A stretch of 64,000 nucleotides of DNA. Origin: an uncultured Oscillibacter sp. GTDB taxonomy: Bacteria > Bacillota > Clostridia > Oscillospirales > Oscillospiraceae. The position numbers and the translations under genes were made by a program. This document shows, piece by piece, positions 21,751 through 49,196 of this stretch. Below the pieces are notes generated by a model. That model was given only the letters and a program-made list of their open reading frames with translations. It was not told the DNA's origin and made no database searches. The first letter of the stretch is position 1. Every line of letters begins with the position of its first letter. The DNA lies in the NCBI GenBank assembly GCA_905234565.1, contig CAJOHW010000028.1, forward strand, positions 9,874-73,873, given 5' to 3'.

Positions 21751-21757
21751 AGACACC

Positions 21758-30755: not shown

Positions 30756-30868
30756 GGGCCTATACCATCGGCCAGGACGAGGACACCTGCGTGGTCTACG
30801 GAATGCCCCGGGCCGCCTATGAGGACGGAGCCGTCATGGTCCAGGCCGGGTGCATGCGGGGCCGATAA
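30756..30868 (+). pseudogene. Duplicated promoterless cheB 3' fragment (repeat copy 2 plus 14 nt to a stop)
   Basis: Encodes AYTIGQDEDTCVVYGMPRAAYEDGAVMVQAGCMRGR* with no start codon. The first 99 bp are identical to 29037-29135. Confidence 0.8.
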
Positions 30869-30925
30869 CCCGGAGGCAGAGCGGGGAGATACGCAATTTC
30901 TTTCCGGATTTTGGGGCGCGGACTA

Positions 30926-30954
30926 TTAATTTTTTGGCCCAATGGACCGATGAA
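30926..30954 (+). promoter_or_regulatory. Sigma-28-type promoter upstream of flgM
   Basis: TTAA-N16-ACCGATGA. Confidence 0.4.
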
Positions 30955-31043
30955 TAGTATGAATGATATTTTATGACCCGCCTCCCTGGCGGCGGATTGT
31001 AAGGATAGCATACCTCAAAATGTGGAAAAGGGGGCGGACCCTG

Positions 31044-31343
31044 ATGAACATCACCAGCACGATTGCGCGGCCCGGAGAGGTGCAGCGCACGTACCAGTCC
31101 CAGCTGTACGCCGCGCCGCAGCCCCAGCGCACGGAACCGGATTCCCGCCGGTTTGACAGCGTCACCATTGCCGCCAGTTCCTCCCGGCTTATGGAACTGC
31201 GGGGGAAAATCGCCCAGGAAGTGCGCACCGCCACCTCCTCCGGCCAGGTCAGCGCCCTGCGGGAACAGGTCCAGAACGGTACCTACCAGCCCGACGCCAT
31301 GGAGATTGCCCGGCGGATGCTGCTGATTCCGGAGGCCGGATAA
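31044..31343 (+). CDS. flgM: Anti-sigma-28 factor FlgM
   Basis: 99 aa. C-terminal SGQVSALREQVQNGTYQPDAMEIARRML is the typical FlgM sigma-binding helix. Lies directly upstream of flgN-flgK. Confidence 0.8.
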   Translation: MNITSTIARPGEVQRTYQSQLYAAPQPQRTEPDSRRFDSVTIAASSSRLMELRGKIAQEVRTATSSGQVSALREQVQNGTYQPDAMEIARRMLLIPEAG

Positions 31344-31796
31344 ATGGACGCCCAGCAGTACCGGGAGTGCTTCGCCTTCCTGGAAAAGCTCTGCGGCACC
31401 CTGGACGCCCTGGCGGACCTGCAAAGGGAGAAAAGCACGGCCGTATCCCGGGACGATCTCCTGGGCGTGGAGGCCTGCATGAAGCGGGAACAGGCCCTGA
31501 GCCTCTCCCTGCGGTCCATGGAGCAGAAGCGGGAAAAACTGTTCTCCCCCCTGGGCATGAGAGACAAACCCTTCTCCGCCCTGCCGGAGTACTGTCCGCC
31601 GGAACTGCGGCCCCAGGCCCGGGATCTGGCGGACCGGGTGCGCCGGTGCTACGGCATCTACCGCAGCGCGGCGGACGCCGCCCGCTCCAACCTGGAGCTG
31701 AACCTCCACCAGATTGAAAAAATGACCGCGGCGCAGGCGCCCGCCGGAGGCATCGACCTGCCCCCCAGCGGCGCTTTTGCCGATATCCGGGCATAA
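31344..31796 (+). CDS. flgN: FlgN-family flagellar export chaperone
   Basis: 150-aa helical protein between flgM and flgK, the position of B. subtilis yvyG. Confidence 0.6.
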   Translation: MDAQQYRECFAFLEKLCGTLDALADLQREKSTAVSRDDLLGVEACMKREQALSLSLRSMEQKREKLFSPLGMRDKPFSALPEYCPPELRPQARDLADRVRRCYGIYRSAADAARSNLELNLHQIEKMTAAQAPAGGIDLPPSGAFADIRA

Positions 31797-31865
31797 GCCC
31801 AAAGCCCCCGGTGACGCGGCACCCGCGCTCACAAGTATCTAAGGGAGAAGGAGGGACGCATCGCA

Positions 31866-34061
31866 ATGGGTACCCTGTCTACGTTCGGCATCTTCACTAT
31901 GACCCGGCTGGGGGTGTACGCCGCCACCCAGGGCCTGAACGTGTCCGGAAACAATGTCACCAATATCAATACGGAGGGCTATACCCGTCAGGTTCTGGAC
32001 CAGACCTCCCTCCATATGAGCGCCGCCGACCGGTACAGCACCCAGTCCATCCATATGGGCTCCGGTGTGCTGGCCCCGGGCGTGTATCAGATCCGGGACC
32101 AGTTCTTAGACATCCGCTACCGCAAAGCCAACAGCGGCGTGGGCTATATGGAGTCCGAACTGGACGGCCTGGACCACCTGTCCAGCCTCCTGGACGAGGT
32201 AAACAAGGGCAATGACCAGGAGGGCGTCCTGGAAGCCATGTTCAACGACATGGTGGATCAGATGGACCAGCTGGCCGCCCAGGGCGCCGGAAAGGACCAG
32301 GACGACACCCTGTTCCGGGCCTCCGTGGAGACCCTGACCCGCCAGCTCAACAAAACCGCCAGCGATCTTGAGGAGTTGAGAGGCACCCGCATTGAAAAGC
32401 TCCAGGAGGACATCGGAGAGGTCAACAAAATCCTGGAACAGATCCGGGATCTCACCACCACCATCCGGAAAAACACCATCTACGGCGACAACTCCCTGGA
32501 ACAGCTGGACCAGCGGAACCTGCTTTTGGATAAACTGTCCGAGTACATGGACATTGACGTGGTCTATACCGAGGAAAACCTGACGCCTACCATCACCTGG
32601 GATAAGCTCACCATCCGCACGGGCACGGACCCCCAGCGGATCGTGGCCGACGGGCTGTACGCCTCCACCCTGGAACTGCGGGTGGGCACGGATGAGGGGG
32701 AGGACCCCAACTTCGACCTGAACTTCCTGGAACTGCGGGATATCCACGGCCACGGCAAAATCCTGCGGGAAGGTGACTTAGGCGCGGTGAAAAACCGGGA
32801 CGCCGGAGCCATGACCTTAGATGAAAACGGGGAATATGTGGTCATCGGCGAGGGAGACGAGATGGAACCCTTGGAATTCCTGACCGAGGAGGAGGCCCAG
32901 GCCCTGTGCGATCAGCTCAATGAAACCGCCAACGGCGTGGAATACCGCCTCCAATACGACGATGGAGTCCTGACCGTCCACCAGTACACCACCACGTTCT
33001 ACGCCTCCAGCGAGGACGCCTACGCCGCCCTGGAAGAACTCAACGCCGCCGGACGGGATTACACCGAGCATACCAATCCCGTCACCGGAGAGGTCACCCG
33101 CTACACCAACCGGATTGTCAATATGGGCTCCACCTTTGAAATCCACCAGTTTGAGGTGTTCTACGGCAAAGTGCAGCTGGGGGATACGGAACTGGGCGGC
33201 GGCCTTCTGGCGGACCGGGAGATCCTGACGGAGGAGGGCATCTTCTCCACCCAGGAGGATCTGGACGGAGACCCCAACGCCGCCTCCAAACGGGGCATCG
33301 TGTTCTACCAGAAGGCCCTGGATGTGCTGGCCAACACCCTTGCCTCCACACTGAACGACGCCAATACCATCCCCGATCAGGAACTCTACGAAACCCGGCA
33401 GGTGGATGTGCGCCAGGACGACGGCAGTTACCTCACCACCTATGAGTTCATCGACGCGGACGGCAACCCCGTCACCGACGGGGACCGGTCCAAGTACGTG
33501 CTGAAAAAGGAGTACAGCTACTATAACGGCGGCGTCCTCCTGAGCAACAAGTCCACGGACAACGACGATACCGGCATCACCGCCGCCAATATCTCGATTT
33601 CCAAAAACTGGGCCAACGGCTCTTTCCGGGTGCTGCGGACCAAGCAGCCCCAGGACCTGGACAGCAACGGCAACCCCATCCCCGCCAGCACCTTGAACGA
33701 CAACCTGAACCATATCCGCAACCTCCTGATTGACAAACACGCATTTATGCCCAATAACGCCGGGATTTACAGCAACGCCGCGTCGGACGAACCCTTCTTT
33801 ACCGGCTCTTTCCAGGAACTGTTCACCGATCACATCGCCGTGTCCCTGGCCACGGACAAGAGCTATGTCAGCACCATGCTGAACAACAACACCATCATGG
33901 CGGACCAGCTCTACGTCAACCGGGACGGCGTGCAGGGTGTGGATTTGAACGACGAGGCCGTGAACATGATGCAGTACCAGAAGGCCTACGACGCCGCCTG
34001 CCGCCTGATGACCGTATACGACGAGATGCTGGATAAGCTCATCAACGGCACAGCCGTGTAA
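31866..34061 (+). CDS. flgK: Flagellar hook-associated protein 1, FlgK
   Basis: N-terminus STFGIFTMTRLGVYAATQGLNVSGNNVTNINTEGYTRQ. C-terminus DEAVNMMQYQKAYDAACRLMTVYDEMLDKLIN. Confidence 0.9.
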   Translation: MGTLSTFGIFTMTRLGVYAATQGLNVSGNNVTNINTEGYTRQVLDQTSLHMSAADRYSTQSIHMGSGVLAPGVYQIRDQFLDIRYRKANSGVGYMESELDGLDHLSSLLDEVNKGNDQEGVLEAMFNDMVDQMDQLAAQGAGKDQDDTLFRASVETLTRQLNKTASDLEELRGTRIEKLQEDIGEVNKILEQIRDLTTTIRKNTIYGDNSLEQLDQRNLLLDKLSEYMDIDVVYTEENLTPTITWDKLTIRTGTDPQRIVADGLYASTLELRVGTDEGEDPNFDLNFLELRDIHGHGKILREGDLGAVKNRDAGAMTLDENGEYVVIGEGDEMEPLEFLTEEEAQALCDQLNETANGVEYRLQYDDGVLTVHQYTTTFYASSEDAYAALEELNAAGRDYTEHTNPVTGEVTRYTNRIVNMGSTFEIHQFEVFYGKVQLGDTELGGGLLADREILTEEGIFSTQEDLDGDPNAASKRGIVFYQKALDVLANTLASTLNDANTIPDQELYETRQVDVRQDDGSYLTTYEFIDADGNPVTDGDRSKYVLKKEYSYYNGGVLLSNKSTDNDDTGITAANISISKNWANGSFRVLRTKQPQDLDSNGNPIPASTLNDNLNHIRNLLIDKHAFMPNNAGIYSNAASDEPFFTGSFQELFTDHIAVSLATDKSYVSTMLNNNTIMADQLYVNRDGVQGVDLNDEAVNMMQYQKAYDAACRLMTVYDEMLDKLINGTAV

Positions 34062-34078
34062 GAGGGAGGGAGGAAACC

Positions 34079-35143
34079 ATGTCGTTCCGCATTACCACCA
34101 ACGGGCTGTTCCGCACCTATGGCACCGCCATGCGCACCCAGAACAAAAAGGTCTACGACGCCCTGGAACGGGTCCAGACCAACCGGAAGTTCGCCCACTT
34201 CTCCGAGGATCCCGCCAGCGCCGCCAAGGCCTTCCGGCTGCGCCGGGACCACTGGCGCTCCACAGACTTCCTGGACAACACCAACTTCCTCATCAGCAAA
34301 CAGGAGATCGCGTACAGCGCCGGCAGCGCCATTGTCAACGGAGATGACCGGGTGCCCAGTCTGGACGGCATTTATGAGAGCCTGGCGGGCCTGTCGGACA
34401 CCGCTGGGGCCGGACGCAAACCCCTGGGCTATGAACTGTCAGCCAAGGCGGAGTCCATTGCCTCCGCCATGAACGTGACGTTCAATGAGGAGTTCGTGTT
34501 CGCCGGAGCCGACGGACTGAACGTCCCCTTTACCTGGGACGGAGATAAACTCCTCTACCGGGGCATTGATGTCAGCGCGGAGACCGGCTCGGAGGACTAT
34601 GAGCGGCTGCAAAAAATGGCCGCCGAGAACACCTATGTGGACATCGGCCAGGGCATGAAGGAAAACGACCAGGGAGTCATTCCCAACAGCGCCTACGACT
34701 CCTGCCTCAGCGGGCTCACCTTCCTGGGCTACGGCACGGATGAGGACGGAGACTCCAAAAACCTGGCGGTGCTGATGAGAGAACTGGGAAACCTGTACCA
34801 GAACTGCGATCCGGATACGGGAGACTACCCCGGCATCAATCACGACGCCCAGGAGGCCAACAAGGCCCGGGCCCAGACCCTGTCCCTGAAAATTCACGAC
34901 GCCATTAACCGCGTCCAGGAACAGCACGTGGCCCTCAGCGCCGGCAGCAACTTCCTGCAGCAGAACAAACGGCAGTTGGAAGAGACCCAGTTCACCCTGC
35001 AGGAACAGATCAGCCAGGTGGAGAAGTTAGATGACACCGGCGCTCTGGCCATTGAGGAGATGGCATGGGCTCAGTACGTCTATGAAGCGGCGCTGCACGT
35101 GGGCAACGACCTGCTCTCCCACTCCCTCTTTGACTATATGTAA
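34079..35143 (+). CDS. flgL: Flagellar hook-filament junction protein FlgL
   Basis: MSFRITTNGLFRTY... flagellin-like N and C helices; position after flgK. Confidence 0.8.
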   Translation: MSFRITTNGLFRTYGTAMRTQNKKVYDALERVQTNRKFAHFSEDPASAAKAFRLRRDHWRSTDFLDNTNFLISKQEIAYSAGSAIVNGDDRVPSLDGIYESLAGLSDTAGAGRKPLGYELSAKAESIASAMNVTFNEEFVFAGADGLNVPFTWDGDKLLYRGIDVSAETGSEDYERLQKMAAENTYVDIGQGMKENDQGVIPNSAYDSCLSGLTFLGYGTDEDGDSKNLAVLMRELGNLYQNCDPDTGDYPGINHDAQEANKARAQTLSLKIHDAINRVQEQHVALSAGSNFLQQNKRQLEETQFTLQEQISQVEKLDDTGALAIEEMAWAQYVYEAALHVGNDLLSHSLFDYM

Positions 35144-35237
35144 GGACGGAAATGTGGAAATAAAGGTGGAAAGTTGAGATCCTCAACGGACGGCTCCGGT
35201 CTGCCGTGTGGAAATTCAGGAAAGGAAGTGCTTTACA

Positions 35238-36044
35238 ATGTATCCCCTGCTTGAGATTACGACGGTGCCCATCGAGATACAGATGAAAACCACCAACGCC
35301 TCCTTGGAGTACACCAAGGGCTCGGTGGAGATGGAAATCGTCCGCTCCGAAAAAAGCGGTGTGGAAGTCAAAAGCGGGCCCATTCAGGTACAGCTGGATA
35401 CCTTTGAACTGCGGGGAGACGCCTTCCAGGCCGCCACGGCCAACGCGGTGGCCGCGGTACAGGCCAGCAACCAGGCAAGCCAGCTGGCCAACCAGACAAA
35501 ACAGCCGGTCAGCCAGCCTGCCGCCAGTCCGGTGTCCAACGCGGCCTTGAACCAATCGGCCGCCGCCCAGGGCAGTTACCGGGCTACCTCCGCCTTCGCC
35601 GACGGGGGTGCCATTCAGTTCAGCTTTCTTTTGAGCGGAGGTCCTCCCCAGACCCAGCAGGCCGTGCCCCAGAATACCCAGCTTACCGCGCCGGAGGCCC
35701 AGATCCTGCCCCAGGAACCCCAGTACGTTCCGCCCCAGGCCCAGATTGCCGCGCCGGAGGCCCAGATCCTGCCCCAGAACAGCGGCGGCGCTCCGGCCCA
35801 GGTTCCGGAGTTCCCGAAAGAACTGAAAGATCTGCCGGATGAGCGGGCCATTGAGATCCGCTATAACATGGACCAGATGAAATTCTCCTGGGACATTCAG
35901 CAGGGCAAGTTCACCTTTATCCCCGGAGACATCGAGTTCACCATGTCCCGGCGGCCCAGCATCACCTATAAGTACTTAGGTGAGCCCATCTATGTGCCCG
36001 CGTCGGCGGATCCCAACTACGAGCCTGTGGATACGGAGGCCTGA
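35238..36044 (+). CDS. YviE-like (DUF6470-type) flagellar-locus protein
   Basis: MYPLLEITTVPIEIQMKTTNASLEY... in the flgL/fliW slot occupied by yviE in B. subtilis. It has an internal PEAQILPQ tandem motif. Confidence 0.6.
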   Translation: MYPLLEITTVPIEIQMKTTNASLEYTKGSVEMEIVRSEKSGVEVKSGPIQVQLDTFELRGDAFQAATANAVAAVQASNQASQLANQTKQPVSQPAASPVSNAALNQSAAAQGSYRATSAFADGGAIQFSFLLSGGPPQTQQAVPQNTQLTAPEAQILPQEPQYVPPQAQIAAPEAQILPQNSGGAPAQVPEFPKELKDLPDERAIEIRYNMDQMKFSWDIQQGKFTFIPGDIEFTMSRRPSITYKYLGEPIYVPASADPNYEPVDTEA

Positions 36045-36059
36045 GCGCGGGGAAAGATA

Positions 36060-36096
36060 CCCGTGAGCGATTCTGAAAGAGCGCGGGTAGAAAAAA
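36060..36096 (+). repeat. Interspersed repeat family, internally deleted copy C (upstream of the fliW SD)
   Basis: cccgtgagcgat + tctgaaagagcgcgggtagaaaa equals the two ends of copy A (cccgtgaacgat ... tctgaaagagcgcgaataaaa) with the middle missing. Confidence 0.45.
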
Positions 36097-36110
36097 GGAG
36101 GCGTCCTGCT

Positions 36111-36569
36111 GTGAAAACCATGACGAAATACTTTGGCGAAATCGAATACGCCCAGGAGGACATCCTTACCTTTCCCAAGGGACTGTACGGTTTTGAGGGG
36201 GAACACTCCTTTCTGCTGCTGCCCTTTTCCGGCAACGGCACCCTCTTCTGTCTCCAAAGCCTGTCCACCCCCCAACTGGGGTTCATCATGATGGATCCCT
36301 TCTCCCTGGAACCGGCCTATGCCCCGGTATTGCAGCCGGAGGAACTGGAATTTTTGAAGGTGGAGCGCAGCCAGGACCTGAGTTATTACGTCATGTGCGT
36401 GGTAAAGGACCCGGTGGCCTGCTCCACAGTGAATCTGCGCTGCCCGGTGGCCGTCCAGGACGACGGCACCGCCATTCAGGTGATTCTGGAGGACGCCGCC
36501 TACCATATGCGCCACCAGCTGGCGGAGTTCGCCCAGCCGGAGGAAGAGGAGGAGGACGCGCCATGCTGA
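36111..36569 (+). CDS. fliW: Flagellar assembly factor FliW
   Basis: GTG at 36111, 9 nt after ggagg. KTMTKYFGEIEYAQEDILTFPKGLYGFEGEHSFLLLP matches the FliW N-terminus. Confidence 0.85.
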   Translation: MKTMTKYFGEIEYAQEDILTFPKGLYGFEGEHSFLLLPFSGNGTLFCLQSLSTPQLGFIMMDPFSLEPAYAPVLQPEELEFLKVERSQDLSYYVMCVVKDPVACSTVNLRCPVAVQDDGTAIQVILEDAAYHMRHQLAEFAQPEEEEEDAPC

Positions 36570-36799
36570 TCCTGCGGCGAAAAGCGGGGGAATCCCTGGT
36601 GATTGGCGACGAGATCAAGGTGGCGGTGCTGGATATCAATGAGGGCAGCGTACGCCTGGCGATTGACGCGCCCAAACGCATTCCCATTCTGCGCAGCGAA
36701 CTGCTTCAGGCGGCGGACGCCAACCGGGACGCCGCCAATGAACAGTCCCAGCCGGAAAAACTTCTGGCCCTGCTGAACCATACGGCCAGACCCAAATAG
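36563..36799 (+). CDS. csrA: Carbon storage regulator CsrA
   Basis: MLILRRKAGESLVIGDEIKVAVLDINEGSVRLAIDAPKRIPILRSEL. The start overlaps the fliW stop (ATGCTGA). Confidence 0.92.
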   Translation: MLILRRKAGESLVIGDEIKVAVLDINEGSVRLAIDAPKRIPILRSELLQAADANRDAANEQSQPEKLLALLNHTARPK

Positions 36800-36805
36800 A
36801 AGGAA

Positions 36806-36838
36806 AGCGCACCTCCTGAGAGGTGCGCTGTGTTTTTT
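36806..36838. terminator. Bidirectional rho-independent terminator
   Basis: agcgcacctc-ctga-gaggtgcgct followed by gtgtttttt. Confidence 0.65.
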
Positions 36839-36859
36839 GGCTGGATAATTTCCCCGGCG

Positions 36860-37798
36860 TTACCGCTTGTGGTGGGGGCGCAGCTTCACCTTTTCACAGG
36901 CGTTCATCACCTGGGTGGTGACGGCGGCGCTGTACCGGCCCTCGTACATGGAGAGCAAAGGCATCACATCCCGGTTGGAGGTGGCCACGTACTTGGAGGG
37001 CAGGTTGGACAGGGCAATAGCAGTTACATCCACTTTACAGCGGTTGCAGGTACACATCCCCATGAGCTTCATATACTTTTCCGCCTTGGCCTCTACCAGG
37101 GCCTGGGTCAGATTGTAGCAGATGAACTCGTCGGGGTGGGGCTCGGGCTTTTTCGCGGCTTGCGGTGCGGCGGGAGCCGGGGCCGCGGGGGCCGCCTGGG
37201 GCGCAGCGGGAGCCGGAGCCACGGGGGCCGTCTGAGGCGCGGCAGGAGCCGGAGCCACGGGGGCCGCCTGAGGCGCAGCGGGAGCCGGTACCACGGGGGC
37301 CGCCTGAGGCGCAGCAGGAGCCGGGGCCGCAGGCGCGGCCTGGGGCGCAACAGGAGCCGAAGCCATGGGCGCGGCCTGGGTGACGACCGGAGCCGAAGCC
37401 ATGGGCGCGGCCTGGGGCGCAACAGGAGCCGGAGCCGTGGGCGCCGCCTGGGTAACAACCGGGGCCGGAGCCGTGGGCGCCGCCTGGGGCGCGGCGGGGG
37501 CCGGAGTTTCCGGCGCAATGGGCGTAAATTCAGGGACTGACGGCTCCTGGCTCTCCGGCGGCTCTTCCTCTGCCACAGCCTTCTTCCCGCCTCTGGCGGG
37601 CTTCCGGCTGCCGAACAGTTCCTCCACCAAGGCGTCCCGGATTTGCTCCTGGGTGGCCTTGTCGTCCAAGCGCTGCACAGTGGGTTCCTCGGCGGCATGG
37701 TCTCCCGACAGGGAGGCGGGGTCCGTCAGCAGGCTCAGGACCCGGGCGGTCTTGCTGCTCTTACCGCCCTTCCCGGTTTTCGATCCGTTTTTTGGCAT
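36860..37798 (-). CDS. ComFB-domain protein with basic N-terminus and long Ala/Pro-rich repeat linker
   Basis: The C-terminal ~95 aa carry the ComFB Cys pattern (YNLTQALVEAKAEKYMKLMGMCTCNRCKVDVTAIALSNLPSKYV). The N-terminus is MPKNGSKTGKGGKSSKTARVLSLL. The middle has ~10 copies of a 12-aa AP-rich unit. Confidence 0.7.
   Translation of the reverse strand: MPKNGSKTGKGGKSSKTARVLSLLTDPASLSGDHAAEEPTVQRLDDKATQEQIRDALVEELFGSRKPARGGKKAVAEEEPPESQEPSVPEFTPIAPETPAPAAPQAAPTAPAPVVTQAAPTAPAPVAPQAAPMASAPVVTQAAPMASAPVAPQAAPAAPAPAAPQAAPVVPAPAAPQAAPVAPAPAAPQTAPVAPAPAAPQAAPAAPAPAAPQAAKKPEPHPDEFICYNLTQALVEAKAEKYMKLMGMCTCNRCKVDVTAIALSNLPSKYVATSNRDVMPLLSMYEGRYSAAVTTQVMNACEKVKLRPHHKR
37150..37515 (-). repeat. ~36-bp tandem repeats (about 10 copies) encoding the PAPAAPQAAPVA linker
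   Basis: Reiterated ggagccggagccRYgggSgccgcctgRggcgc units are visible in the DNA. The protein reads APTAPAPVVTQA/APMASAPVAPQA/APAAPAPAAPQA... Confidence 0.75.
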
Positions 37799-37846
37799 GG
37801 TGGTTCCCCCATTTCATTGTTTCACAGTCCTATGGTTTTGCGTTCG

Positions 37847-38608
37847 TCAGCCCTCCGGACGCATCAGTTCCCGCAGCAGCGCCTTAAAATCCCGGGCGGG
37901 CCGGGAGTCCGGCGCGTAGGTAATGACGCTCTCGCCGTGGGCGGGAGATTCCGCCACGGTGACGCTGGCGTGGATTTTGGAGTGGAACACCTTGGTCCCC
38001 AGCTTCCGGGCCACGTCCTGGGACATCTCCTCCACTTCCCGGTTCAGCAGCAGGCGGTTGTTGTACCGGTTGAGGAGGATCCCCAGGACTTCCAGGTCCG
38101 GATTGTAGTATTTGCGCACCGTCTCGATGGTGTCCCGGATCTGGGCAATGCCTAAGAGACTGAGGATCTCCGGGGCCATGGGAATGATGAGCCCCTCCGC
38201 CGCCACGTAGGCGTTTACCGTCAGCACGTTCAGGGCGGGCGGGGTGTCGATGATGATGTAGTCATAGTTCCCGGCGGCCTTGGTCAGCTCGTTGCGCAGC
38301 AGGTATTCCCGGCCCGGCACGTTGAACTCCAGTTCCGCCGTGGACAAAAGGATGTTGGAGGGGATGAAGTCCCCCATGTCCGTGGAGGCGATGGCGTTGC
38401 GGATAGGTTCCTTTCCCTTCAGGACATCGTAAATGGTGACACTGTTCTCAATATCCACCCCGGCGCTGAAGCCCAGGCTCCCCTGGGGATCCAGGTCCAC
38501 TCCCAGCACCCGGAAGCCCTTCTGCCGCAATGCCCCAATCAGAGACAGCGCCGTGGTAGTCTTTCCCACGCCGCCTTTCTGGTTGGTGATGGCGATGGTT
38601 TTTTTCAA
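37847..38608 (-). CDS. Orphan ParA/Soj-family (deviant Walker A) ATPase
   Basis: MKKTIAITNQKGGVGKTTTALSL...GVDLDPQGS...IIIDTPPAL. No parB or parS-like partner is present; the gene lies directly upstream of the ComFB-domain gene. Confidence 0.85.
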   Translation of the reverse strand: MKKTIAITNQKGGVGKTTTALSLIGALRQKGFRVLGVDLDPQGSLGFSAGVDIENSVTIYDVLKGKEPIRNAIASTDMGDFIPSNILLSTAELEFNVPGREYLLRNELTKAAGNYDYIIIDTPPALNVLTVNAYVAAEGLIIPMAPEILSLLGIAQIRDTIETVRKYYNPDLEVLGILLNRYNNRLLLNREVEEMSQDVARKLGTKVFHSKIHASVTVAESPAHGESVITYAPDSRPARDFKALLRELMRPEG

Positions 38609-38648
38609 GGCAAGCCCTCCTGTCTGTGTAAAAATTTTTCCTGCCCTC

Positions 38649-38676
38649 TTAATCTTTCTAATTATTATGTCGATAT
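38649..38676 (+). promoter_or_regulatory. Sigma-28-type promoter upstream of fliD
   Basis: TTAA-N16-GTCGATAT, ~205 nt upstream of the fliD ATG. Confidence 0.45.
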
Positions 38677-38882
38677 AAAAGATAAGAAAATTAATAGGGC
38701 CGGAACATTTTTTTCGCGGGATCTCCCTGCCCGCCGCCCCTTTTGACCTGCGGGGCGTCCCGGGGCGGGACCCTTTCCCGTGCCCTTCCCGATTTTCCGT
38801 ACCTTAAGCATCCCACGGAACTCTTTCCGCGTGACGACCGACGCTCCGCCTTGTGCGGAGCGGGACAAAGGAGTGAACATCC

Positions 38883-41800
38883 ATGGCGAACATCAACAGC
38901 ATTTCCGGTTCCACGACTACCACCAGTTCTGTCAGCAACCCCAATGCCATCACAGGCCTTGCCACCGGCATGGACACGGAGGCCATGATCGAAAAAAGCG
39001 TCTCCGGCATCAAGTCCAAAATCTCCTCCCTTCAGCAGAGCCAGACCAAGGTGGAGTGGCGGCAGGAAGCCATGCGCAGCATCCTGGACAAAATGTCCGA
39101 CCTCTCCTCCAAGTACACGTCCTACACCTCCCCCACCAACCTCATGAGCAACCAGTTCTTCACCGGAAACGTGACCGTCACCCCCACCGGCGCTTATGCC
39201 GACCGGGTCAGCGCCACGGGGAAAAGCAATACCGACATCCAGATCAAATCCGTGGACCAGCTGGCCACCTCCTCCCGTTACAGCGTCAACGCCAGCGCCC
39301 TGAATATGGCCTCCGGCCTCAACGCCGAAGGCACCGCCATCGACTGGGAGGGCACCTTCACCCAGCCCGCTTTCTCCGGCACCCTGACCTTGTCCTATGG
39401 CAACCGGACCGTGGACCTGAAGCTGGATCCGGACGATCTGAACATCGGCGGCAGCGACTATCAGCGGGCCAACACCACATACAGCAAGAGCGCCGCCGCC
39501 CGGACCCTGGCCGACGCCATTACCAAAAAGCTGGCGGAGACCGACGTGCGCAACAAAGACGGGGAACTGGTCAAAGGCAGCGAGCTGTTCCAGGGCCTCA
39601 CCGTCACCAAGGACGGGGACATCCGGTTCAACGGCACCACCGACGGACAGCTGGTCACCATCACCAGCGCCAGCGGGGATCTGAAAAGCAATCTGGGCGT
39701 CGGCTCCAGCAGCATCCGGATTTGGACCAACACGGATCAGGGCACCTTCCAGTTTTACAAGAAGCAGAACGCCGCGGAGTACCTGTCCGGCAAGACCATT
39801 GACGTGACCCTGGACGGCGTGACCAAGTCCGTATCCCTGGGGAACCTGACCAACCTGACGGTGTCCACCGGCGGCACCTCCTCCCCCGGCGGCGCCAATG
39901 AAACGGACATCCTCTCCGACGACGATACCTCCTCCACCGCCACAGAGGACAACGCCCTCATGCAGCAGTTGGTGAAAAACCTCCAGACCAGCCTGGACAA
40001 GTCCTTTGGCAAGAACCGGGTCCATGTCACGGAGAAAGACGGCGCCCTGGCCTTCGAGGCCACCGGCGGGTCCACCCTGAAAGTCGCGGCGGAGGACGCC
40101 CTGTCCAACTCCCTGGGGATGGGGGAAACCGGATTGACCAACTACTTCGACACCAGCAAAAACCTGGGGACCCTGCTCAAAGACGAAACCGCCGGAAACA
40201 CCTGGTTTAACCAGCACACCACCATTGAGGTGGACGAGTCCCAAATTGATACCTCCCGGAACGCCTTCGACAAGTCCAAGGGGATCCTCTATGATACGGA
40301 TGGGAACCTGGTGCGCAAAATCGGCATGGCCTACTACCGGGTAGATGAGGACGGAAACCAGGTCTATGAGCAAAACGGCATGAAGGTGGATCCCACCGAA
40401 ATCGACACCACCCGGGACCCCTATAACCCCCAGATCAGCATCCTCTACGATAAGAGCGGCAACCTGGTGAAGAAGTTCGGCGACGACTATTACCGGGTGG
40501 ACTCCGACGGAGATATGCTCTATGAGCTGAAAATCAACGGCGCTTCTGTGGGAGCCTTTAACGGGAAAAACTCCCTGGAGAGCGTCCTCAACACCATCAA
40601 CGGCTCTGACGCCGGGGTTACCGCCACTTACTCCCGCATGACCAACCAGTTCACCTTCACCTCCAAGGAGACCGGGGAACTGGGGGAGATCAACTTCGAC
40701 AGCCCCCTGGCCGCCCGGCTGTTCCAGGCCAACGGGAATACCACCACCATGAAAACCCTGAAAGACGCCCTGTCCGGCTGGAAGTGGGACAGCGACGGCT
40801 CCACCACCCTCTCCCTGGACGGAAAGGAACTGGGCTCCTTCAAGCGGACCGACACCGTGCAGGATGTCATTGACGCCATCAACGCCGGAGGGGACTATAC
40901 CGTGGCCTTTAGCGACAACACCGGCGCGTTCCGCCTGCTGGACAAGGACGGCAACGCCCTCTCTGACAGCCTGTCCCTCACCTCCAACACCGGCAGTTCC
41001 ATCGCGGCGGACAGCACGGTTCCTCCCAGCATTGGCCGGCCCGGCGGGTTCTTCTACGGCCTGGACGACTCCGCCCAGTATACCCGGGGCCAGGACGCCC
41101 AGCTCACCGCCATTGTCAACGGCAAGGAGATGGCCATGAAGCGGGGCTCCAACGTGGTGAATATGGACGGCATGAACGTCACCTTGAAGGGCACCTTCCA
41201 GACGGCGGAGGGGGAGGAGGCCGTGGGCTTCCAGACCAGCGCCGACACCACCGAAATTACCGACGCCATCCGCTCCTTTGTGGACGAGTTCAACGCCCTG
41301 GCCAAGGAGATTCACGACGCCTACTCCACCCAGCCGGCGGAGAAGAACTCCTCCACCCATGCCCGCTATGAGCCCCTCACCGAGGAGGATAAGGCGGATA
41401 TGAGCGATATCGCCATTGAGCGCTATGAGGAGAAGGCCAAACAGGGGATCCTCTTTGGAGACAACGACCTCTCCAACCTCTATTCCCGGCTTATCAGCGC
41501 CATCAGCCCCGGCGGCGCGGACCGCAAGGCCATGGAAGCCATCGGCCTGACCACCCAGTATTCCAACGGCCTGACTACCTTGACCTTGGACGAGGGACGG
41601 CTGAAATCCGCCCTGGAAGCCAACGCGGAGAACGTGAAAAACGTCTTTTCCAGCGCCACCGTCAGTTCCAACGGCCTTATGAGCAAGATGAAGCAGACTT
41701 TGGATACCTACGGCTCCACCGCTTATGGCAACTTAGGCGTCCTGGTGCGCAAGGCCGGCTCCACCCGCAACTCCTCTTCCCTGCTGAACAACACCATGCA

Positions 41801-41960
41801 GTCCCAGATCAACAACTACCAGACCCAGATTGAGAAGTGGCAGGACAAGATGAGCAACAGCATCGACCGCTATACCAAACTGTTCACCCAGCTGGAACAG
41901 CTGACCGCCAAGATGAACAGCCAGTCCAGCGCCCTCAGCGGCCTTATGGGCGGCTATTAA
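38883..41960 (+). CDS. fliD: Flagellar filament cap protein FliD (unusually long, 1025 aa)
   Basis: N-terminus ITGLATGMDTEAMIEKSVSGIKSKISSLQQSQTKVEWRQEA. C-terminus IDRYTKLFTQLEQLTAKMNSQSSALSGLMGG. The large central insertion contains an internal duplication. Confidence 0.85.
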   Translation: MANINSISGSTTTTSSVSNPNAITGLATGMDTEAMIEKSVSGIKSKISSLQQSQTKVEWRQEAMRSILDKMSDLSSKYTSYTSPTNLMSNQFFTGNVTVTPTGAYADRVSATGKSNTDIQIKSVDQLATSSRYSVNASALNMASGLNAEGTAIDWEGTFTQPAFSGTLTLSYGNRTVDLKLDPDDLNIGGSDYQRANTTYSKSAAARTLADAITKKLAETDVRNKDGELVKGSELFQGLTVTKDGDIRFNGTTDGQLVTITSASGDLKSNLGVGSSSIRIWTNTDQGTFQFYKKQNAAEYLSGKTIDVTLDGVTKSVSLGNLTNLTVSTGGTSSPGGANETDILSDDDTSSTATEDNALMQQLVKNLQTSLDKSFGKNRVHVTEKDGALAFEATGGSTLKVAAEDALSNSLGMGETGLTNYFDTSKNLGTLLKDETAGNTWFNQHTTIEVDESQIDTSRNAFDKSKGILYDTDGNLVRKIGMAYYRVDEDGNQVYEQNGMKVDPTEIDTTRDPYNPQISILYDKSGNLVKKFGDDYYRVDSDGDMLYELKINGASVGAFNGKNSLESVLNTINGSDAGVTATYSRMTNQFTFTSKETGELGEINFDSPLAARLFQANGNTTTMKTLKDALSGWKWDSDGSTTLSLDGKELGSFKRTDTVQDVIDAINAGGDYTVAFSDNTGAFRLLDKDGNALSDSLSLTSNTGSSIAADSTVPPSIGRPGGFFYGLDDSAQYTRGQDAQLTAIVNGKEMAMKRGSNVVNMDGMNVTLKGTFQTAEGEEAVGFQTSADTTEITDAIRSFVDEFNALAKEIHDAYSTQPAEKNSSTHARYEPLTEEDKADMSDIAIERYEEKAKQGILFGDNDLSNLYSRLISAISPGGADRKAMEAIGLTTQYSNGLTTLTLDEGRLKSALEANAENVKNVFSSATVSSNGLMSKMKQTLDTYGSTAYGNLGVLVRKAGSTRNSSSLLNNTMQSQINNYQTQIEKWQDKMSNSIDRYTKLFTQLEQLTAKMNSQSSALSGLMGGY

Positions 41961-41987
41961 ACCGATGGGGAGTGACAGAATCAGGCC

Positions 41988-42398
41988 ATGAATACAAGAG
42001 GATATCAGCGCTATAAAGCGCAGTCCCTGAACACCATGACCCAGGGAGAGCTGCTGCTCCTGGTCCTGGACGAACTGGTGAAGCGCCTGCTGCGGGGAGA
42101 TCTGGCCTTGAGCCAGGGGGACTATGAACTGTTTGAAGCCTCCATCGACCGGTGCATCCTGATCGTCCGCTATCTGGACGATACCCTGGACCGGAAGTAT
42201 GAGATCAGCTTCCAGCTCCACCGGCTCTATGAGTTTTTCAGCTACGACCTCAACCGCATCAAGCTGGGCCGCAACAAAACGGAACTGGACCGGCTCCGCC
42301 CCCTGATTACGGACCTGCGGGATACCTTCCGGGCGGCGGAACAGATGGTGTCCTCCGCCCAGGCCCAGGCGGCCCAAGGCGGGGCGCCGGGGATGTGA
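41988..42398 (+). CDS. fliS: Flagellar export chaperone FliS
   Basis: YQRYKAQSLNTMTQGELLLLVLDELVKRL...; 136 aa; position after fliD. Confidence 0.85.
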   Translation: MNTRGYQRYKAQSLNTMTQGELLLLVLDELVKRLLRGDLALSQGDYELFEASIDRCILIVRYLDDTLDRKYEISFQLHRLYEFFSYDLNRIKLGRNKTELDRLRPLITDLRDTFRAAEQMVSSAQAQAAQGGAPGM

Positions 42399-42796
42399 TG
42401 GACCGGGCGGAACTGGAGGCCCTGTGGCAGCGCAGGAAACTCCAGACCCTGCGGCTGCTGGACGTGGAGAACCTGACCCGGGAACTGCTCCAAGCCGCCC
42501 GGCAGCGGGACCAGGTGACGCTGAATATGCTGCTGTCCATGCGGGAAGAACCCCTGCGCCGCCTGGAAGAACTGGAAGCCGCCGTGCGGCAGCAGCTGCT
42601 GCGTCTGCCCCGGGAGGACGCCGTCCGGGCGAAAGCGCTGCTGGAAGGGGCGCCGGCGTCAGGGGAAGAGGAAGCGGCTCTGGCGGCGCAGGTGGCCCAG
42701 TACCGCCGGACCTTAGACGCCGTGGTGGAACTGGACCGGCGGCTGAACCTGAGCCTGACCGGAGACAAGTCCTTTTATAAGATGTTCCGGAACTGA
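42398..42796 (+). CDS. Helical protein in the FliT position (FliT-like, tentative)
   Basis: The ATG overlaps the fliS stop (TGATG). 132 aa, all-helical and charged. The call rests only on fliD-fliS-fliT synteny. Confidence 0.4.
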   Translation: MDRAELEALWQRRKLQTLRLLDVENLTRELLQAARQRDQVTLNMLLSMREEPLRRLEELEAAVRQQLLRLPREDAVRAKALLEGAPASGEEEAALAAQVAQYRRTLDAVVELDRRLNLSLTGDKSFYKMFRN

Positions 42797-42811
42797 ACAC
42801 GATTCCGCGCT

Positions 42812-42845
42812 GCCCGCCCCCGGAAACGAGGGCGGGCTGTCTTTG
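42812..42845 (+). terminator. Rho-independent terminator after the fliT-like gene
   Basis: gcccgccc-ccggaaacga-gggcgggc followed by tgtcttt. Confidence 0.55.
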
Positions 42846-43200
42846 GCAGACAGCCAACTCGCTCTATAAGTCTTTCGCCTCCCAGGTCTTTGGCAGACAG
42901 CCAACTCGCTCTATGAGTCTTTCGCCTCCCAGGTCTTTGGCAGACAGCCAACTCGCTCTACAAGTCTTTCGCCCCCCAGGTTTCTGCGACGGCAACGCAG
43001 GAAGCGCAAAATCTCCCCTGTCCGTCTTTGGCAGACAGCCAACTCGCTCTACAAGTCTTTCGCCTCCCAGGTCTTTGGCAGACAGCCAACTCGCTCTACA
43101 AGTCTTTCGCCTCCCAGGTCTTTGGCAGACAGCCAACTCGCTCTATAAGTCTTTCGCCTCCCAGGTTTCTGCGACGGCAACGCAGGGCTGCCGTCCCTAA
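42839..43200. repeat. Tandem array: two blocks of 3 x 47-bp units, each block ending in a gtttctgcgacggcaacgcag hairpin tail
   Basis: Units at 42839, 42886, 42933 and at 43024, 43071, 43118 (gtctttggcagacagccaactcgctctaYaagtctttcgcctcccag). Tails at 42980-43023 and 43165-~43200. Same family, in reverse orientation, as 51276-51455. Confidence 0.9.
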
Positions 43201-43211
43201 GAGAACCCCTT

Positions 43212-44207
43212 TCACGGCGATATAATCCACAGAGGTGCGCCGTCGTAGCGGCTGGCGGACAGCTCCGAGATGATGAGATCCGGATCCCACACCTCCACGC
43301 TGTTCTCCCGGCTGTTGGGGTCCGCCACCAGCACCCCGCCGTCCTCCGTGGTGCCGTGGATGATGATGAAGTGTCCGCTTTTGGTGAAGTGGCCCCGTCC
43401 CATAAGGGCCACGGCATAGGCCCCGCCCTTCACCGTGTCGTACAGGGTCTGGCCGTCCAGTTGGGCGGGGGACTGGCAGGAGAAGCCGTAGTGGTCCGCC
43501 GCCCCCTGGATGATGGACAGGTAGGAGCCGCTGGAAGGGGCGGCGTATCCCGCGTTGGAAGCCCACTGGGCGGCGGCCTCCGGCGTCAGGGCCTTCCCCC
43601 GGAAGGTGGACACCAGCATGGCCACCACCACCGGGCCGCAGCCGTGGGTGCCGATGGGGTCCCGGCCAAAGAGCTTGTCCGCCCAGGCGTCGTCCTTCTG
43701 GTTGTAGTAGACGAAGTACTTCCGGTTCCCGCCGGTGAGCAGTTCAAAACTGCCGCTGTGTACCAGTTCCGTCACCGCCGCCGGGGTGGTATCCTGGGGG
43801 GCGGTGTCCTCTGGCAGCTGGCCGCTCTTCATGAGCTTTTTCAGCCGCCGCTCCTCCGCCTTCCGGGCACGCTCCTCCTCCCTGGCCCTGCGCTTTTCCT
43901 CCCGGACGCGCAGCCGCTCCTGACGCTGGCGCTCCCGCTCTATCCGCAGTTCCTCCGCCCGCAGACGCTGGGCCTGGGCCAGTTCCTCCCGGAGATCCGC
44001 CTGATCCGACAGCCACTGGGCATATTGGCCGGAAATATCCTTGACTTGTGTACGCGCTCCGTGGTATAAAATACGTACAGGCGTGACAATCCGCTCGTAG
44101 AGGGCCGGATCCTGGCTCCGGCAGGCGGCCAGCTCCGCGGCACATACGCACAGCGCCGCTAAGAGCACGGTCATGATGAAGTTTTTCACAAGGCTTCGCT
44201 CGTTCAT
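43212..44207 (-). CDS. Membrane-anchored papain-like (C39-like) cysteine peptidase-domain protein with a highly charged coiled-coil linker
   Basis: ATG at 44207 (SD GAGGTG). TM segment FIMTVLLAALCVCAA. ER-rich helix RAEELRIERERQRQERLRVREEKRRAREEERARKAEERR. C-domain with THGCGPVVVAMLV (Cys) and GHFIIIHG (His). Confidence 0.6.
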   Translation of the reverse strand: MNERSLVKNFIMTVLLAALCVCAAELAACRSQDPALYERIVTPVRILYHGARTQVKDISGQYAQWLSDQADLREELAQAQRLRAEELRIERERQRQERLRVREEKRRAREEERARKAEERRLKKLMKSGQLPEDTAPQDTTPAAVTELVHSGSFELLTGGNRKYFVYYNQKDDAWADKLFGRDPIGTHGCGPVVVAMLVSTFRGKALTPEAAAQWASNAGYAAPSSGSYLSIIQGAADHYGFSCQSPAQLDGQTLYDTVKGGAYAVALMGRGHFTKSGHFIIIHGTTEDGGVLVADPNSRENSVEVWDPDLIISELSASRYDGAPLWIISP

Positions 44208-44323
44208 GGATGCACCTCGGGGCGGTACGCGCCAAGTTCGGAATGATACGCATATCAGTATAACAAACCCGGCGGGATTTGTAAAGTGACAATCCCATTT
44301 CAACGGGGCAGGAGGCGGCTTGG

Positions 44324-45028: not shown

Positions 45029-45040
45029 GGCGGTGCAATT

Positions 45041-47841: not shown

Positions 47842-47918
47842 AATCCAGCCTGTAAAGTTTACCTTCTTTAGGAATGTTCTGTCTGGCCCCCTGCCGGGGA
47901 AAGGGGGTGGCTGACGGC

Positions 47919-49196
47919 ATGAACGCCTATATCGGCCGTCAGGCGATCTATAACCGGGACTACGTCCCCGCCGCTTACGAGCTGCTCTACCGCAGCGGCC
48001 GGGAGGAAAACGCCGCGTCCTTTGCCAATCCCGACGCCGCCACCCGGACGGTGCTGGCCAACGCCGTGCAGGTGTTCGGCGTGGACAAGCTCACCGGGGG
48101 AAAACCCGCCTACGTCAATTTTACCCAGGAACTGCTCATGAGCAATCTCATGTATATGATCCCGCCGGGGCGGATCATCGTGGAACTGCCGGGAAACCTG
48201 AAAGTAGACGAGGCCCTGTCCTATAAGCTCCATGAGATGAAAACCCTGGGCTACCAGCTCTCCCTGGGAGACTACACGGAGGTCCGGGGGCAACTGCACC
48301 TAAATTCCGTGATCCACCTGTTTGACTACATCCGGCTGAACGTGCGGACCCGCAACCGCCTGGAACTGCGGGAACTGATCCGAAAAATCCGCCGCCGCAG
48401 TCAGGCGGAGATCATTATGGAGCGGGTGGAGACGGAAGCGGATTTCGACAAGGTGAAAGACCTGGACTTCTCCCTGTGGCAGGGCTACTTCTTTGAAAAG
48501 CCGGAGCGGCTGTGCAAAGAGGTGAACCTGGCCTCTTCGCCCTACGGACTGCTGTTCCGGGCGTCGGCCCAGAGGGAGAACGCCCTCTCCGATCCCCTGC
48601 GCTCCTGCCAGGATCTGATTCTGCGCCAGCCCGTGCTGACCCACCTGCTGCTGGGGTCCTCCCCTACGCCCAACCTGACGGAGGAGCAGGTGGCCTCTTC
48701 CATCCACCACAAGCTGCTGCGCATCGGCGCGTCGGGACTGAAGAAGTGGGCGTGCCTGGTGCTGCTCAAACAGCTCAACGTCTCCAACTCCGATGCGGAG
48801 GCGGTGCAGGCCTACCTCCGGGGGATCTTTACCGAGGGGCTCATTGGCGTGGGGGAGACCCGGGCCGATCCGGATCTGGGGCTGTACGTGGGCCTGTTCA
48901 GCCTGCTGGAACAGGTGACGGACATCCCCCTGGAGGAACTGCTGGAGGCCCTGAAACCCGGCATCGAGGTGGAGAACATCTTTATGAACCGGGAGATGAA
49001 CGAGTACGCGGAGTATCTTCTCTACGCCGCCTACTATGAGCGAACCCGGTCCCCCCTGCGCCAGACAAAGGTCCGCCTGTCCATCGCGGACTGGGACCTG
49101 GACTCCCTGTTCCAGTTCTGCCAGGAGGAGGCGGAGCGGGCCTACGAGACCATGACCCCCTCTGACGGGACTTACCGGGGGAACGTGCTGCACTGA
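47919..49196 (+). CDS. EAL-like plus HDOD domain signalling protein (YuxH/PdeH-like architecture)
   Basis: MNAYIGRQAIYNRDYVPAAYELLYRSG...IIVELPGN...LSLGDY...IRLNV...QGYFFEKP, followed by an HDOD-like helical domain. Confidence 0.75.
   Translation: MNAYIGRQAIYNRDYVPAAYELLYRSGREENAASFANPDAATRTVLANAVQVFGVDKLTGGKPAYVNFTQELLMSNLMYMIPPGRIIVELPGNLKVDEALSYKLHEMKTLGYQLSLGDYTEVRGQLHLNSVIHLFDYIRLNVRTRNRLELRELIRKIRRRSQAEIIMERVETEADFDKVKDLDFSLWQGYFFEKPERLCKEVNLASSPYGLLFRASAQRENALSDPLRSCQDLILRQPVLTHLLLGSSPTPNLTEEQVASSIHHKLLRIGASGLKKWACLVLLKQLNVSNSDAEAVQAYLRGIFTEGLIGVGETRADPDLGLYVGLFSLLEQVTDIPLEELLEALKPGIEVENIFMNREMNEYAEYLLYAAYYERTRSPLRQTKVRLSIADWDLDSLFQFCQEEAERAYETMTPSDGTYRGNVLH

Follow-up and report, generated by a model that had tools for sequence, protein, structure and literature searches.

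A conserved parA-comFB gene pair in the flagellar locus of Oscillospirales: a putative ATPase-partner module with a candidate cyclic-dinucleotide receptor

In an uncultured Oscillibacter sp., a gene for a ParA-type ATPase and a gene for a protein with a ComFB domain lie side by side within a flagellar locus. This parA-comFB pair is the subject of the present analysis, and the sequence in which it was studied, called the window below, is a stretch of 64,000 nt of contig CAJOHW010000028.1 (positions 9,874-73,873). A Soj/ParA-type ATPase with a KGGVGKTT motif, encoded 48 nt upstream of and on the same strand as a protein of 312 amino acids, had been noticed in an earlier note on this DNA, which also placed the pair between csrA and fliD; the coordinates were confirmed, and both flanking genes were verified by Pfam (Table 1). 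The pair is read from the strand opposite to that of all flanking flagellar genes, convergent with csrA and divergent from fliD. No terminator-like site was found in the 48-nt gap, both genes share one reading frame, and parA and comFB are probably co-transcribed as a two-gene operon.

The product of comFB, referred to here as the partner, indeed consists of the three parts that had been described for it: a basic N-terminal peptide, an Ala/Pro-rich disordered linker of about 200 residues and a C-terminal ComFB domain with a Cys cluster. Its conservation was assessed in an alignment of 52 homologues, which also served as input for AlphaFold2. The model has helices at residues 16-25 and 46-61, followed by an unstructured stretch (residues 62-224) and the ComFB domain (residues 225-310). 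The N-terminus (MPKNGSKTGKGGKSSKTARVLSLL) starts with a Lys/Ser/Gly-rich leader and continues with the motif S-K16-T-A-R19-V-L-S-L-L, for which the family consensus is S-K-T-A-R/H-V-L/M-x-L-L, with K16, T17, A18, V20 and L23 invariant. In nearly all orthologues this motif lies within the first 35 or so residues of the longest open reading frame (ORF). The leader ahead of it has a median length of 11 residues after trimming to the nearest Met, and together with K16-T-A-x-V-x-x-L it carries a mean net charge of about +2. An exhaustive HMMER search with the domain gave 1064 clusters at 50% identity, 546 of them at E<=1e-10, and when the 150 best of these cluster representatives are considered, 116 have the strict N-terminal motif, most of the others being variants or truncated at the start. 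Across the sequences compared, the K-T-A-R/H-V-L/M-x-L-L peptide is a hallmark of this ComFB subfamily. The second helix (QIRDALxxEL) is conserved as well, with I53 and L57 invariant and L61 at least 90% conserved.

The linker is the most variable part of the partner. The ten or so Ala/Pro-rich repeats counted in it earlier correspond to the 36-nt tandem repeats of Table 1, which encode a 12-residue unit of the type APxAPQAAPxxP. Within the family, linkers of 91-234 residues occur that are hypervariable in sequence, with Ala and Pro at about 20% each and Glu at about 14%. Repeat copy number varies between strains, as illustrated by a strain variant of 288 residues that has two repeats fewer and is accompanied by a 100% identical ParA. 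A minority lineage (L088; P0034, P0048, P0266, P0298 and P0306) carries one to four linker copies of GGKMSQ(E/D)(E/D)IE(K/R)(L/M)L, a motif that does not occur in the window partner; its SQ(E/D)(E/D)IEKLL portion resembles the N-terminal LSQxEIDALL segment of FliM/FliY, which binds CheY-P.

With one genome scanned for each GTDB species, 424 relatives were obtained, and the counts of loci given here refer to the best 80 of these, all of which are Oscillospirales or unclassified Clostridia metagenome-assembled genomes. Genera that carry the pair include Oscillibacter, Flintibacter, Lawsonibacter, Pseudoflavonifractor, Pygmaiobacter, Acutalibacter and Neglectibacter. In 75 of these loci parA is the gene directly upstream of comFB and has the same orientation; of the remaining five, four are interrupted by the end of a contig and one (L077) truly lacks parA. 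A check of synteny thus came out in favour of the pairing, with adjacency in 75 of the 76 species loci that hold upstream DNA, over a range of about 33-100% partner identity and with a median ORF-to-ORF gap of 36 nt. The fliD gene, followed by fliS, is divergent from parA in all 61 loci with enough DNA, and the order fliS, fliD, divergent parA and comFB was also seen on contigs of three homologues down to 33% identity; csrA-fliW lies downstream of the pair in 25 of the 80 loci. The two proteins differ in conservation, with identities of 73-90% for ParA orthologues as compared to 33-55% for the partner. In L077 the ComFB protein has only 127 residues and starts with MTNENVLSEQIKDSLEEELH; it retains helix 2 and the domain and lacks the basic leader and the KTA motif, so that ParA and the N-terminal peptide are lost together. 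Natural fusions of ParA and ComFB were considered and rejected, the longer ParA matches being due to mis-called starts or internal duplication.

Table 1 Features of the parA-comFB region (positions in the window)
Feature	Position	Strand	Evidence and remarks
parA-like gene	37847..38608	-	ORF, 253 aa, TTG start; Pfam AAA_31 7.7e-50
parA-comFB spacer	37799..37846	-	48 nt; GGGGGA ribosome-binding site ahead of ATG
comFB partner gene	36860..37798	-	ORF, 312 aa; Pfam ComFB 9.1e-14
N-terminal peptide, aa 1-25	37724..37798	-	Candidate ParA-docking/ATPase-activating peptide; conservation and predicted helix 16-25
Second conserved helix, aa 46-61 (DDKATQEQIRDALVEELF)	37616..37663	-	Conservation; AlphaFold2 pLDDT (predicted local distance difference test) 59-77
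Tandem 36-nt repeats, Ala/Pro-rich disordered linker	37173..37506	-	Tandem Repeats Finder, 9.3 copies
C-terminal ComFB domain, aa 225-312	36863..37126	-	AlphaFold2, Foldseek; candidate c-di-GMP/c-di-AMP receptor and target-binding domain
Bidirectional terminator	36806..36829	.	Hairpin with 10-bp stem, T-runs on both strands; common to csrA (+) and parA-comFB (-)
parA/fliD divergent intergenic region	38609..38882	.	Sigma-28/SigD-like -10 box TCGATAT at 38670-38676 (+)
EAL(-HDOD-type) gene	47874..49196	+	Pfam EAL 3.1e-10; associated element outside the operon
csrA	36566-36799	+	Pfam
fliD	38883-41960	+	Pfam

The ATPase starts with MKKTIAITNQKGGVGKTT and matches, next to AAA_31, also the Pfam family CbiA (E=2.1e-28). 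Its top matches in the PDB, with E values of about 1e-43 to 1e-45, include Myxococcus xanthus ParA (8RAY, 6.6e-45), Thermus thermophilus Soj (1WCV, 4.1e-43) and 4PFS, and Helicobacter pylori Soj is also among the closest structures. Since chromosomal ParA/Soj structures are closest and MinD structures match at about 1e-18, some 25 orders of magnitude worse than Soj, the window protein is a small Soj-type ATPase and not one of the MinD/FlhG type. McdA-type cargo-positioning ParAs are likewise weak matches (about 1e-16). With FlhG/FleN it shares the ParA/MinD superfamily and the location in a flagellar locus, and some of its orthologues have MinD-like C-terminal tails, but membership of FlhG was rejected in view of the missing N-terminal helix, the missing membrane tail and the sequence affinity to Soj. 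An N-terminal FlhF-activating helix and an FlhF neighbour are features of the FlhG/MinD branch. The window ParA starts 10 residues ahead of its Walker A motif, with no N-terminal extension, and no second ORF with a P-loop or deviant Walker A motif, such as FlhF, was found in 88 related loci (1.08 Mb in total).

Functional residues of M. xanthus ParA were transferred to the window protein via the 8RAY alignment (PMC12462528), and their conservation was counted in the 75 orthologues from the best 80 loci. The catalytic core is intact: K11 and K16 of the deviant Walker A motif NQKGGVGKTT are invariant, as are the motif 2 aspartates D38 and D40 (D58 and D60 in M. xanthus), and the equivalent of N64 is Asn in 44 and Ser in 31 orthologues, the window protein having Ser. 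The position of R238 (217 in the window ParA) is occupied by S, G, A, V, T or N in all 75 proteins and never by Arg or Lys; in M. xanthus, R238E abolishes non-specific DNA binding (PMC12462528). In the window protein HASVTVAESPA stands in place of the Soj hallmark PRNxRLSEAP, and no member of the family has Arg or Lys at the position that corresponds to the second Arg of this hallmark. R185 is kept in 73 of the 75 orthologues and presumably corresponds to R189 of B. subtilis Soj. The window protein ends with ...ALLRELMRPEG directly after the last core helix, with no membrane-targeting tail. About two-thirds of the orthologues, outside the clade of the window, carry a C-terminal tail of 6-18 residues (AG.xFPxP[RK]...) with a basic or aromatic end, such as PRSKWF, GFSFWG, EKSKGFFSALFK or QSFRQKYISKFFN (examples in L001, L037, L044, L047 and L072), and some of these tails, e.g. 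EKSKGFFSALFK, resemble the membrane-targeting helix of MinD.

These properties bear on the question whether the protein could simply be a chromosomal or plasmid partition ATPase with its ParB encoded elsewhere. The top PDB matches are chromosomal ParA/Soj proteins and one orthologue is named 'chromosome partitioning protein' in some sources, but the position in the flagellar locus is fixed in 75 species and the DNA-binding Arg is missing throughout. The absence of ParB that had been reported for the window also stands: no GERRxRA-type motif was detected in the six-frame translation of the 64-kb window or in the 88 related loci, and none lies within 7 kb of the pair in 75 loci. In Firmicutes, soj is typically found in an ori-proximal soj-spo0J context, which is not evident here. 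On the flagellar context and the missing DNA-binding Arg in the loci compared, this possibility was rejected, its probability being next to negligible.

It is also conceivable that the two proteins function independently, with the ComFB protein alone acting as a motility brake dependent on cyclic di-guanosine monophosphate (c-di-GMP) and ParA serving chromosome or division-site organisation, so that adjacency would reflect co-expression only. The ComFB protein of Bacillus subtilis (BsComFB) works without any ParA, the short form in L077 consists of the ComFB domain and helix 2 alone, and the ATPase is of Soj type by sequence. Yet the adjacency persists in nearly all informative loci down to about 33% partner identity, the peptide is lost exactly where ParA is lost, ParB is absent from the vicinity both in the window and in the related loci, and the Soj hallmark is not kept. 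Independent functions are therefore regarded as quite improbable.

A functional connection between the two proteins can be envisaged on the basis of what is known about related ATPases. ParA/MinD ATPases are activated via a short positively charged, often N-terminal peptide that is grafted on a cargo-interaction domain (PMC7993993, PMC10241942). In the ParA-ParB system of M. xanthus (PMC12462528; 8RAY), the peptide of ParB is an amphipathic helix, the aliphatic residues of which enter a cleft that lies at the ParA dimer's edge, while an Arg or Lys contacts Y81, E82 and E117. The pair described here has an ATPase of the same subfamily and the same gene order, with the ATPase first and the partner second, and its partner likewise opens with a short unstructured basic and aliphatic peptide for which an amphipathic helix is predicted. 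In a helical-wheel projection, V20, L21, L23 and L24 occupy one face and R19 the opposite one, the same geometry as described for R13 of ParB, where the basic residue is opposite to the hydrophobic face (PMC12462528). Furthermore, most of the docking site is kept in the ATPase: the equivalents of Y81, E82 and E117 are Y60 (74 of 75 orthologues), D61 (Asp or Glu in 74 of 75) and E94 (71 of 75), and the pocket residues L93, L126, V128 and V131 remain aliphatic, with L126 invariant. The proposal that the ComFB protein is the dedicated adaptor of this ParA is thus supported by synteny, by the joint loss in L077, by the invariant peptide, by an ATPase that is more conserved than its partner and by the retention of most docking residues. 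The differences from ParA-ParB are nevertheless clear. The partner has no ParB/Srx CTPase, helix-turn-helix or parS-binding parts and contains a ComFB domain instead, the register of the peptide differs, its central residue is R/H as compared to R/K in ParB, the equivalent of R238 is missing, and the locus is flagellar and apparently not ori-proximal.

In its overall architecture the partner resembles PomX of the PomZ-PomX system of M. xanthus (PMC7993993), which also has a positively charged N-terminal peptide of about 22 residues, an Ala/Pro-rich unstructured region and a C-terminal interaction domain; in that system, too, the ATPase is highly conserved and the partner divergent. However, the C-terminus of PomX is a filament-forming coiled coil, the cargo is the division machinery, there is no receptor for a nucleotide messenger, and the PomX peptide is modelled at a MinE-type site. 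McdA-McdB, PpfA-TlpT and ParC-ParP show the same arrangement of an orphan ParA-type ATPase next to a cargo-specific partner with a basic disordered N-terminus, but their cargos are carboxysomes or chemoreceptor arrays, their partners contain other domains, and their ATPases rely on the nucleoid or on a polar landmark.

The C-terminal part of the partner is a ComFB domain. The ComFB family of Pfam (PF10719) matches with 51.7 bits, against a gathering cut-off of 25, over residues 229-308 and profile positions 2-83 of 83, and all 52 homologues contain the domain. The AlphaFold2 model of residues 225-310 has pLDDT values above 90, and with this model Foldseek retrieved BsComFB (4WAI, TM score 0.75-0.77) and the CdgR-c-di-GMP complex (8HJA), both with a probability of 1.0. 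Cys249, Cys251, Cys254 and Cys301 are invariant, as are D257, A260, Y270, V271 and Y285, and the C-terminal PHH is near-invariant (at least 90% of the 52 sequences). ComFB proteins are dimeric receptors of c-di-GMP or cyclic di-adenosine monophosphate (c-di-AMP) that act by ligand-sensitive protein-protein interactions (PMC12448109, PMC12265714, PMC10068817). Those of four lineages bind c-di-GMP, and ligand-bound BsComFB inhibits flagellar function (PMC12448109, PMC12265714). The contacts of BsComFB with c-di-GMP involve D33, A36, L37, N40, R/K41, V47 and Y55, and mutation of D33 weakens binding most. In the window partner, D257, A260, I261, Y270 and V271 align to D33, A36, L37, Y46 and V47, respectively.

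Compared with BsComFB and the cyanobacterial CdgR/SyComFB, the partner has the same domain by Pfam and fold, a Zn-type Cys cluster and the equivalents of D33, A36, L37 and V47, and in B. subtilis, too, the gene is found in linkage with late flagellar genes. The characterised proteins are, however, stand-alone domains or have helical N-terminal subdomains, and none of them is reported to have an N-terminal peptide like that of ParB, an extended Ala/Pro-rich tether or a parA gene beside its own (PMC12448109, PMC12265714, PMC10068817). A further indication of a second-messenger connection comes from the gene neighbourhood. An orthologue of an EAL-HDOD gene lies, convergently, at most 400 nt downstream of comFB in 39 of the 80 loci and within the locus in 42 of 80; its homologue in the window is 9 kb away from comFB. 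Since no recognisable DDFGTG motif was found in the window copy or in that of L001 (8846-10135), this protein may be a degenerate receptor or regulator rather than an active phosphodiesterase. The ComFB fold, the invariant equivalent of D33 and the adjacent EAL-HDOD gene in half of the species speak for the link to cyclic dinucleotides that the earlier note had drawn, whereas neither N40 nor K41 has a conserved counterpart. It is plausible from these features that the ComFB domain of the partner binds a cyclic dinucleotide.

Because the partner combines a ParB-like peptide, a PomX-like architecture and a ComFB domain, we propose a cognate ATPase-partner pair, and we hold it to be rather probable, though by no means assured, that parA-comFB encodes an ATPase and its activator-partner, that the cargo-binding domain of the latter is a c-di-GMP receptor and that the pair acts on flagella. 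In such a system, the ATP-bound ParA dimer would offer two hydrophobic clefts at the dimer edge, and the partner, presumably a dimer via ComFB, would present two N-terminal amphipathic helices (K16-T-A-R/H19-V-L/M-x-L-L) that could dock in these clefts and stimulate ATP hydrolysis. A disordered Ala/Pro-rich tether of 90-230 residues would join the peptide to the ComFB domain, which may bind c-di-GMP (possibly c-di-AMP) and, in a ligand-dependent manner, a motility-related target. In this way the level of the second messenger could be coupled, in Oscillospirales, to flagellar assembly, distribution or activity. It is from the combination of features described above that we infer a physical interaction, stimulation of the ATPase, binding of a ligand, the nature of the target and any positioning role.

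Several observations weigh against this proposal. The hydrophobic residues of the peptide stand at +1, +2, +4 and +5 from the basic residue, as compared to -2, +2, +5 and +6 in ParB, and about half of the species have His as the central basic residue, even though R13A in M. xanthus ParB abolishes stimulation (PMC12462528). The ParA pocket differs at two positions (T163 for L187 and Y/F168 for L192), and the equivalent of D110 (position 87) is Leu or Met. In a phylogeny-aware covariation test, with only five peptide changes on the tree, no ParA column was found to co-switch with the peptide, which favours neither side. A raw anti-correlation of the R/H alternative with ParA position 213 was lost when co-transitions were counted by parsimony, and the peptide variants L/M, S/N and T/S track ParA positions 44, 87, 93 and 168 through a single deep split between clades. 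The altered register of the peptide, together with the altered pocket positions, could insulate the pair from the cell's own ParB. In the ComFB domain, the equivalent of N40 is S264 (S, N or T across the family) and that of K41 is N265 (N or H), and no equivalent of Y55 can be assigned, though Y285 is invariant. Moreover, since the ParA has no R238 equivalent and the window protein no membrane tail, canonical positioning by a surface gradient is not evident, and since the operon has no sigma-28-type box of the kind that fliD has, it may lie outside the late flagellar regulon.

This last point follows from the divergent fliD-parA intergenic regions, 62 of 68 of which contain a [CT]CGATA[AT] box directed towards fliD, and none of 68 such a box towards parA. 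In the window, 62 nt separate this box (TCGATAT) from the start of parA, and the ATG of fliD follows about 207 nt downstream of it; the box is thus upstream of both genes. From the position of this sigma-28/SigD-like box it follows that fliD has a long 5' leader and that the fliD and parA promoters are back-to-back. A sigma-28-type promoter for parA-comFB was accordingly rejected, the box that is present belonging to fliD, and a scan with the sigma-70 consensus for a parA-comFB promoter gave nothing. In Oscillibacter-type loci (L001, 13821-16693), flhA overlaps the gene of a sigma-28-type sigma factor by 4 nt, and no flhF or flhG was found between the two genes. This order differs from that in B. 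subtilis.

The promoter arrangement is of interest for the strongest rival explanation, according to which the ATP-bound ParA and a c-di-GMP-sensing ComFB protein form a switch, like FleN/FleQ, that controls how late flagellar components are expressed or exported, possibly through sequestration of a transcription factor, a sigma or anti-sigma factor, CsrA-FliW or FliS. FleN is a MinD-like protein that modulates the c-di-GMP-binding FleQ in flagellar control in Pseudomonas; FleQ is an AAA+ enhancer-binding protein, whereas the presumed c-di-GMP receptor here is a ComFB domain. Cyanobacterial ComFB/CdgR proteins work by binding the transcription factors DevH and SyCRP1/2 in a c-di-GMP-sensitive way, an overlap of the parA promoter with the sigma-28-like fliD promoter is unavoidable, and the neighbours csrA, fliW, fliS and flgM are late regulators and chaperones. 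A ParA that has lost the DNA-binding Arg and, in the window, has no membrane tail also fits a switch better than a surface gradient. On the other hand, BsComFB alters flagellar function and not flagellar abundance, small Soj-type ParAs have no DNA-sequence-specific domain, and no transcription factor gene is conserved beside the pair on the contigs of the three homologues mentioned above. The long disordered tether with a ParB-like peptide is typical of adaptors and not of co-regulators. We therefore consider a switch of this type rather unlikely.

The wider gene order raises the possibility of another cargo. In the window, flgM, flgN, flgK, flgL, a DUF6470 gene, fliW and csrA (+) precede comFB and parA (-), which are followed by fliD, fliS and a small unassigned ORF (+). 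Farther upstream are cheA, cheW, cheR and cheB, and farther downstream genes for a C39-like peptidase, an ABC-type ATPase, a 630-residue FtsA/PilM-like protein, the EAL-domain protein and a methyl-accepting chemotaxis protein (MCP). A role in positioning of chemoreceptor arrays, as in ParC-ParP or PpfA-TlpT, with the ComFB protein tethering arrays to ParA, would agree with the presence of cheA-cheW-cheR-cheB at 8-13 kb and of the MCP gene at 11 kb from the pair, with cheV, cheD and cheC following the EAL-HDOD gene in Oscillibacter-type loci, and with the FliM/FliY-like linker motif of the minority lineage. However, the invariant neighbour is fliD-fliS and che genes are nearby in some lineages only, neither a CheW nor an MCP domain is present in the partner, and the PDB matches to cargo-positioning ParAs such as McdA are weak, which makes this highly improbable. 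More generally, the idea of the earlier note that the module places flagella or chemosensory arrays finds no support so far: nothing points to positioning, the ParA has neither the DNA-binding Arg nor, in the window, a tail, and the conserved neighbourhood is fliD-fliS and not che. A more far-reaching variant of the proposal can be formulated, in which a ParB-type docking peptide grafted onto a second-messenger receptor would create, in flagellated Oscillospirales, a system gated by c-di-GMP and driven by ParA, which would govern flagellar basal bodies, or a motor-braking complex, in their number, spacing or inheritance and would functionally replace FlhF/FlhG. The lack of flhF and flhG between flhA and the sigma factor gene in Oscillibacter-type loci would agree with such a replacement. 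This variant is distinctly unlikely; if true, it would be the first ParA/MinD cargo adaptor that is itself a cyclic-dinucleotide receptor.

Some other features of the region deserve mention. The intergenic segment 42839-43186, between the small ORF after fliS and the gene of the C39-like peptidase, contains a 47-bp tandem repeat (7 copies, 81% match), which can alternatively be described with a 185-bp period (1.9 copies, 96%); it has no Rfam match, as is the case for the whole of positions 30000-46000. The block downstream of fliS (window 42395-46933; also in L001, L005, L008 and L089) comprises the small ORF (61 of 80 loci), a C39_2-type peptidase (37 of 80), an ABC-type ATPase of about 235 residues (50 of 80) and an FtsA/PilM/MreB-like actin-fold protein of 613-663 residues, with the MCP gene next to it in Oscillibacter-type loci. 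It may represent an uncharacterised flagellum-associated module. An ORF of 170 residues at 46985-47497 (+) starts with an extremely Lys-rich repeat (MPKEKKPKKEKKPKKEKPKKEKKPK...) and has no Pfam match. Three large ORFs of 713, 1235 and 1786 residues at 9395-21963 (-), two of them with S-layer-homology domains, presumably encode cell-surface proteins and are unrelated to parA-comFB.

The pairing appears to be new, as the earlier note had supposed. The published ComFB survey lists neighbourhoods with the comF operon, pili, hfq, flagellar genes and GGDEF, and architectures with REC, CheR, PATAN, PspA-like and Ig-like domains, and mentions neither a ParA neighbour nor an N-terminal peptide module; full-text literature searches for a ComFB-ParA pairing likewise gave nothing relevant. 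The logic of a ParA with its partner is familiar, whereas the receptor-type partner and the flagellar setting are new, and parA-comFB is probably a hitherto undescribed module that links c-di-GMP to flagellar control. The module is widespread, with 424 species-level matches and hundreds of 50%-identity clusters, and it occurs among Clostridia that are abundant in gut and rumen, the flagella of which matter for host immune recognition while their flagellar regulation is essentially unstudied.

Together with diverse partners, ParA/MinD ATPases act in the organisation of chromosomes, division sites, carboxysomes, chemoreceptor arrays and flagella, and many of these ATPases are orphans. With the pair described here, an orphan ParA gains a specific, testable candidate partner of which the cargo end would be a cyclic-dinucleotide receptor. 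The motility target of ComFB in B. subtilis has not been identified, and the present subfamily offers a built-in candidate partner as well as a peptide that can be mutated. If the proposed function is correct, it would provide a direct route by which c-di-GMP controls a ParA-type machine.

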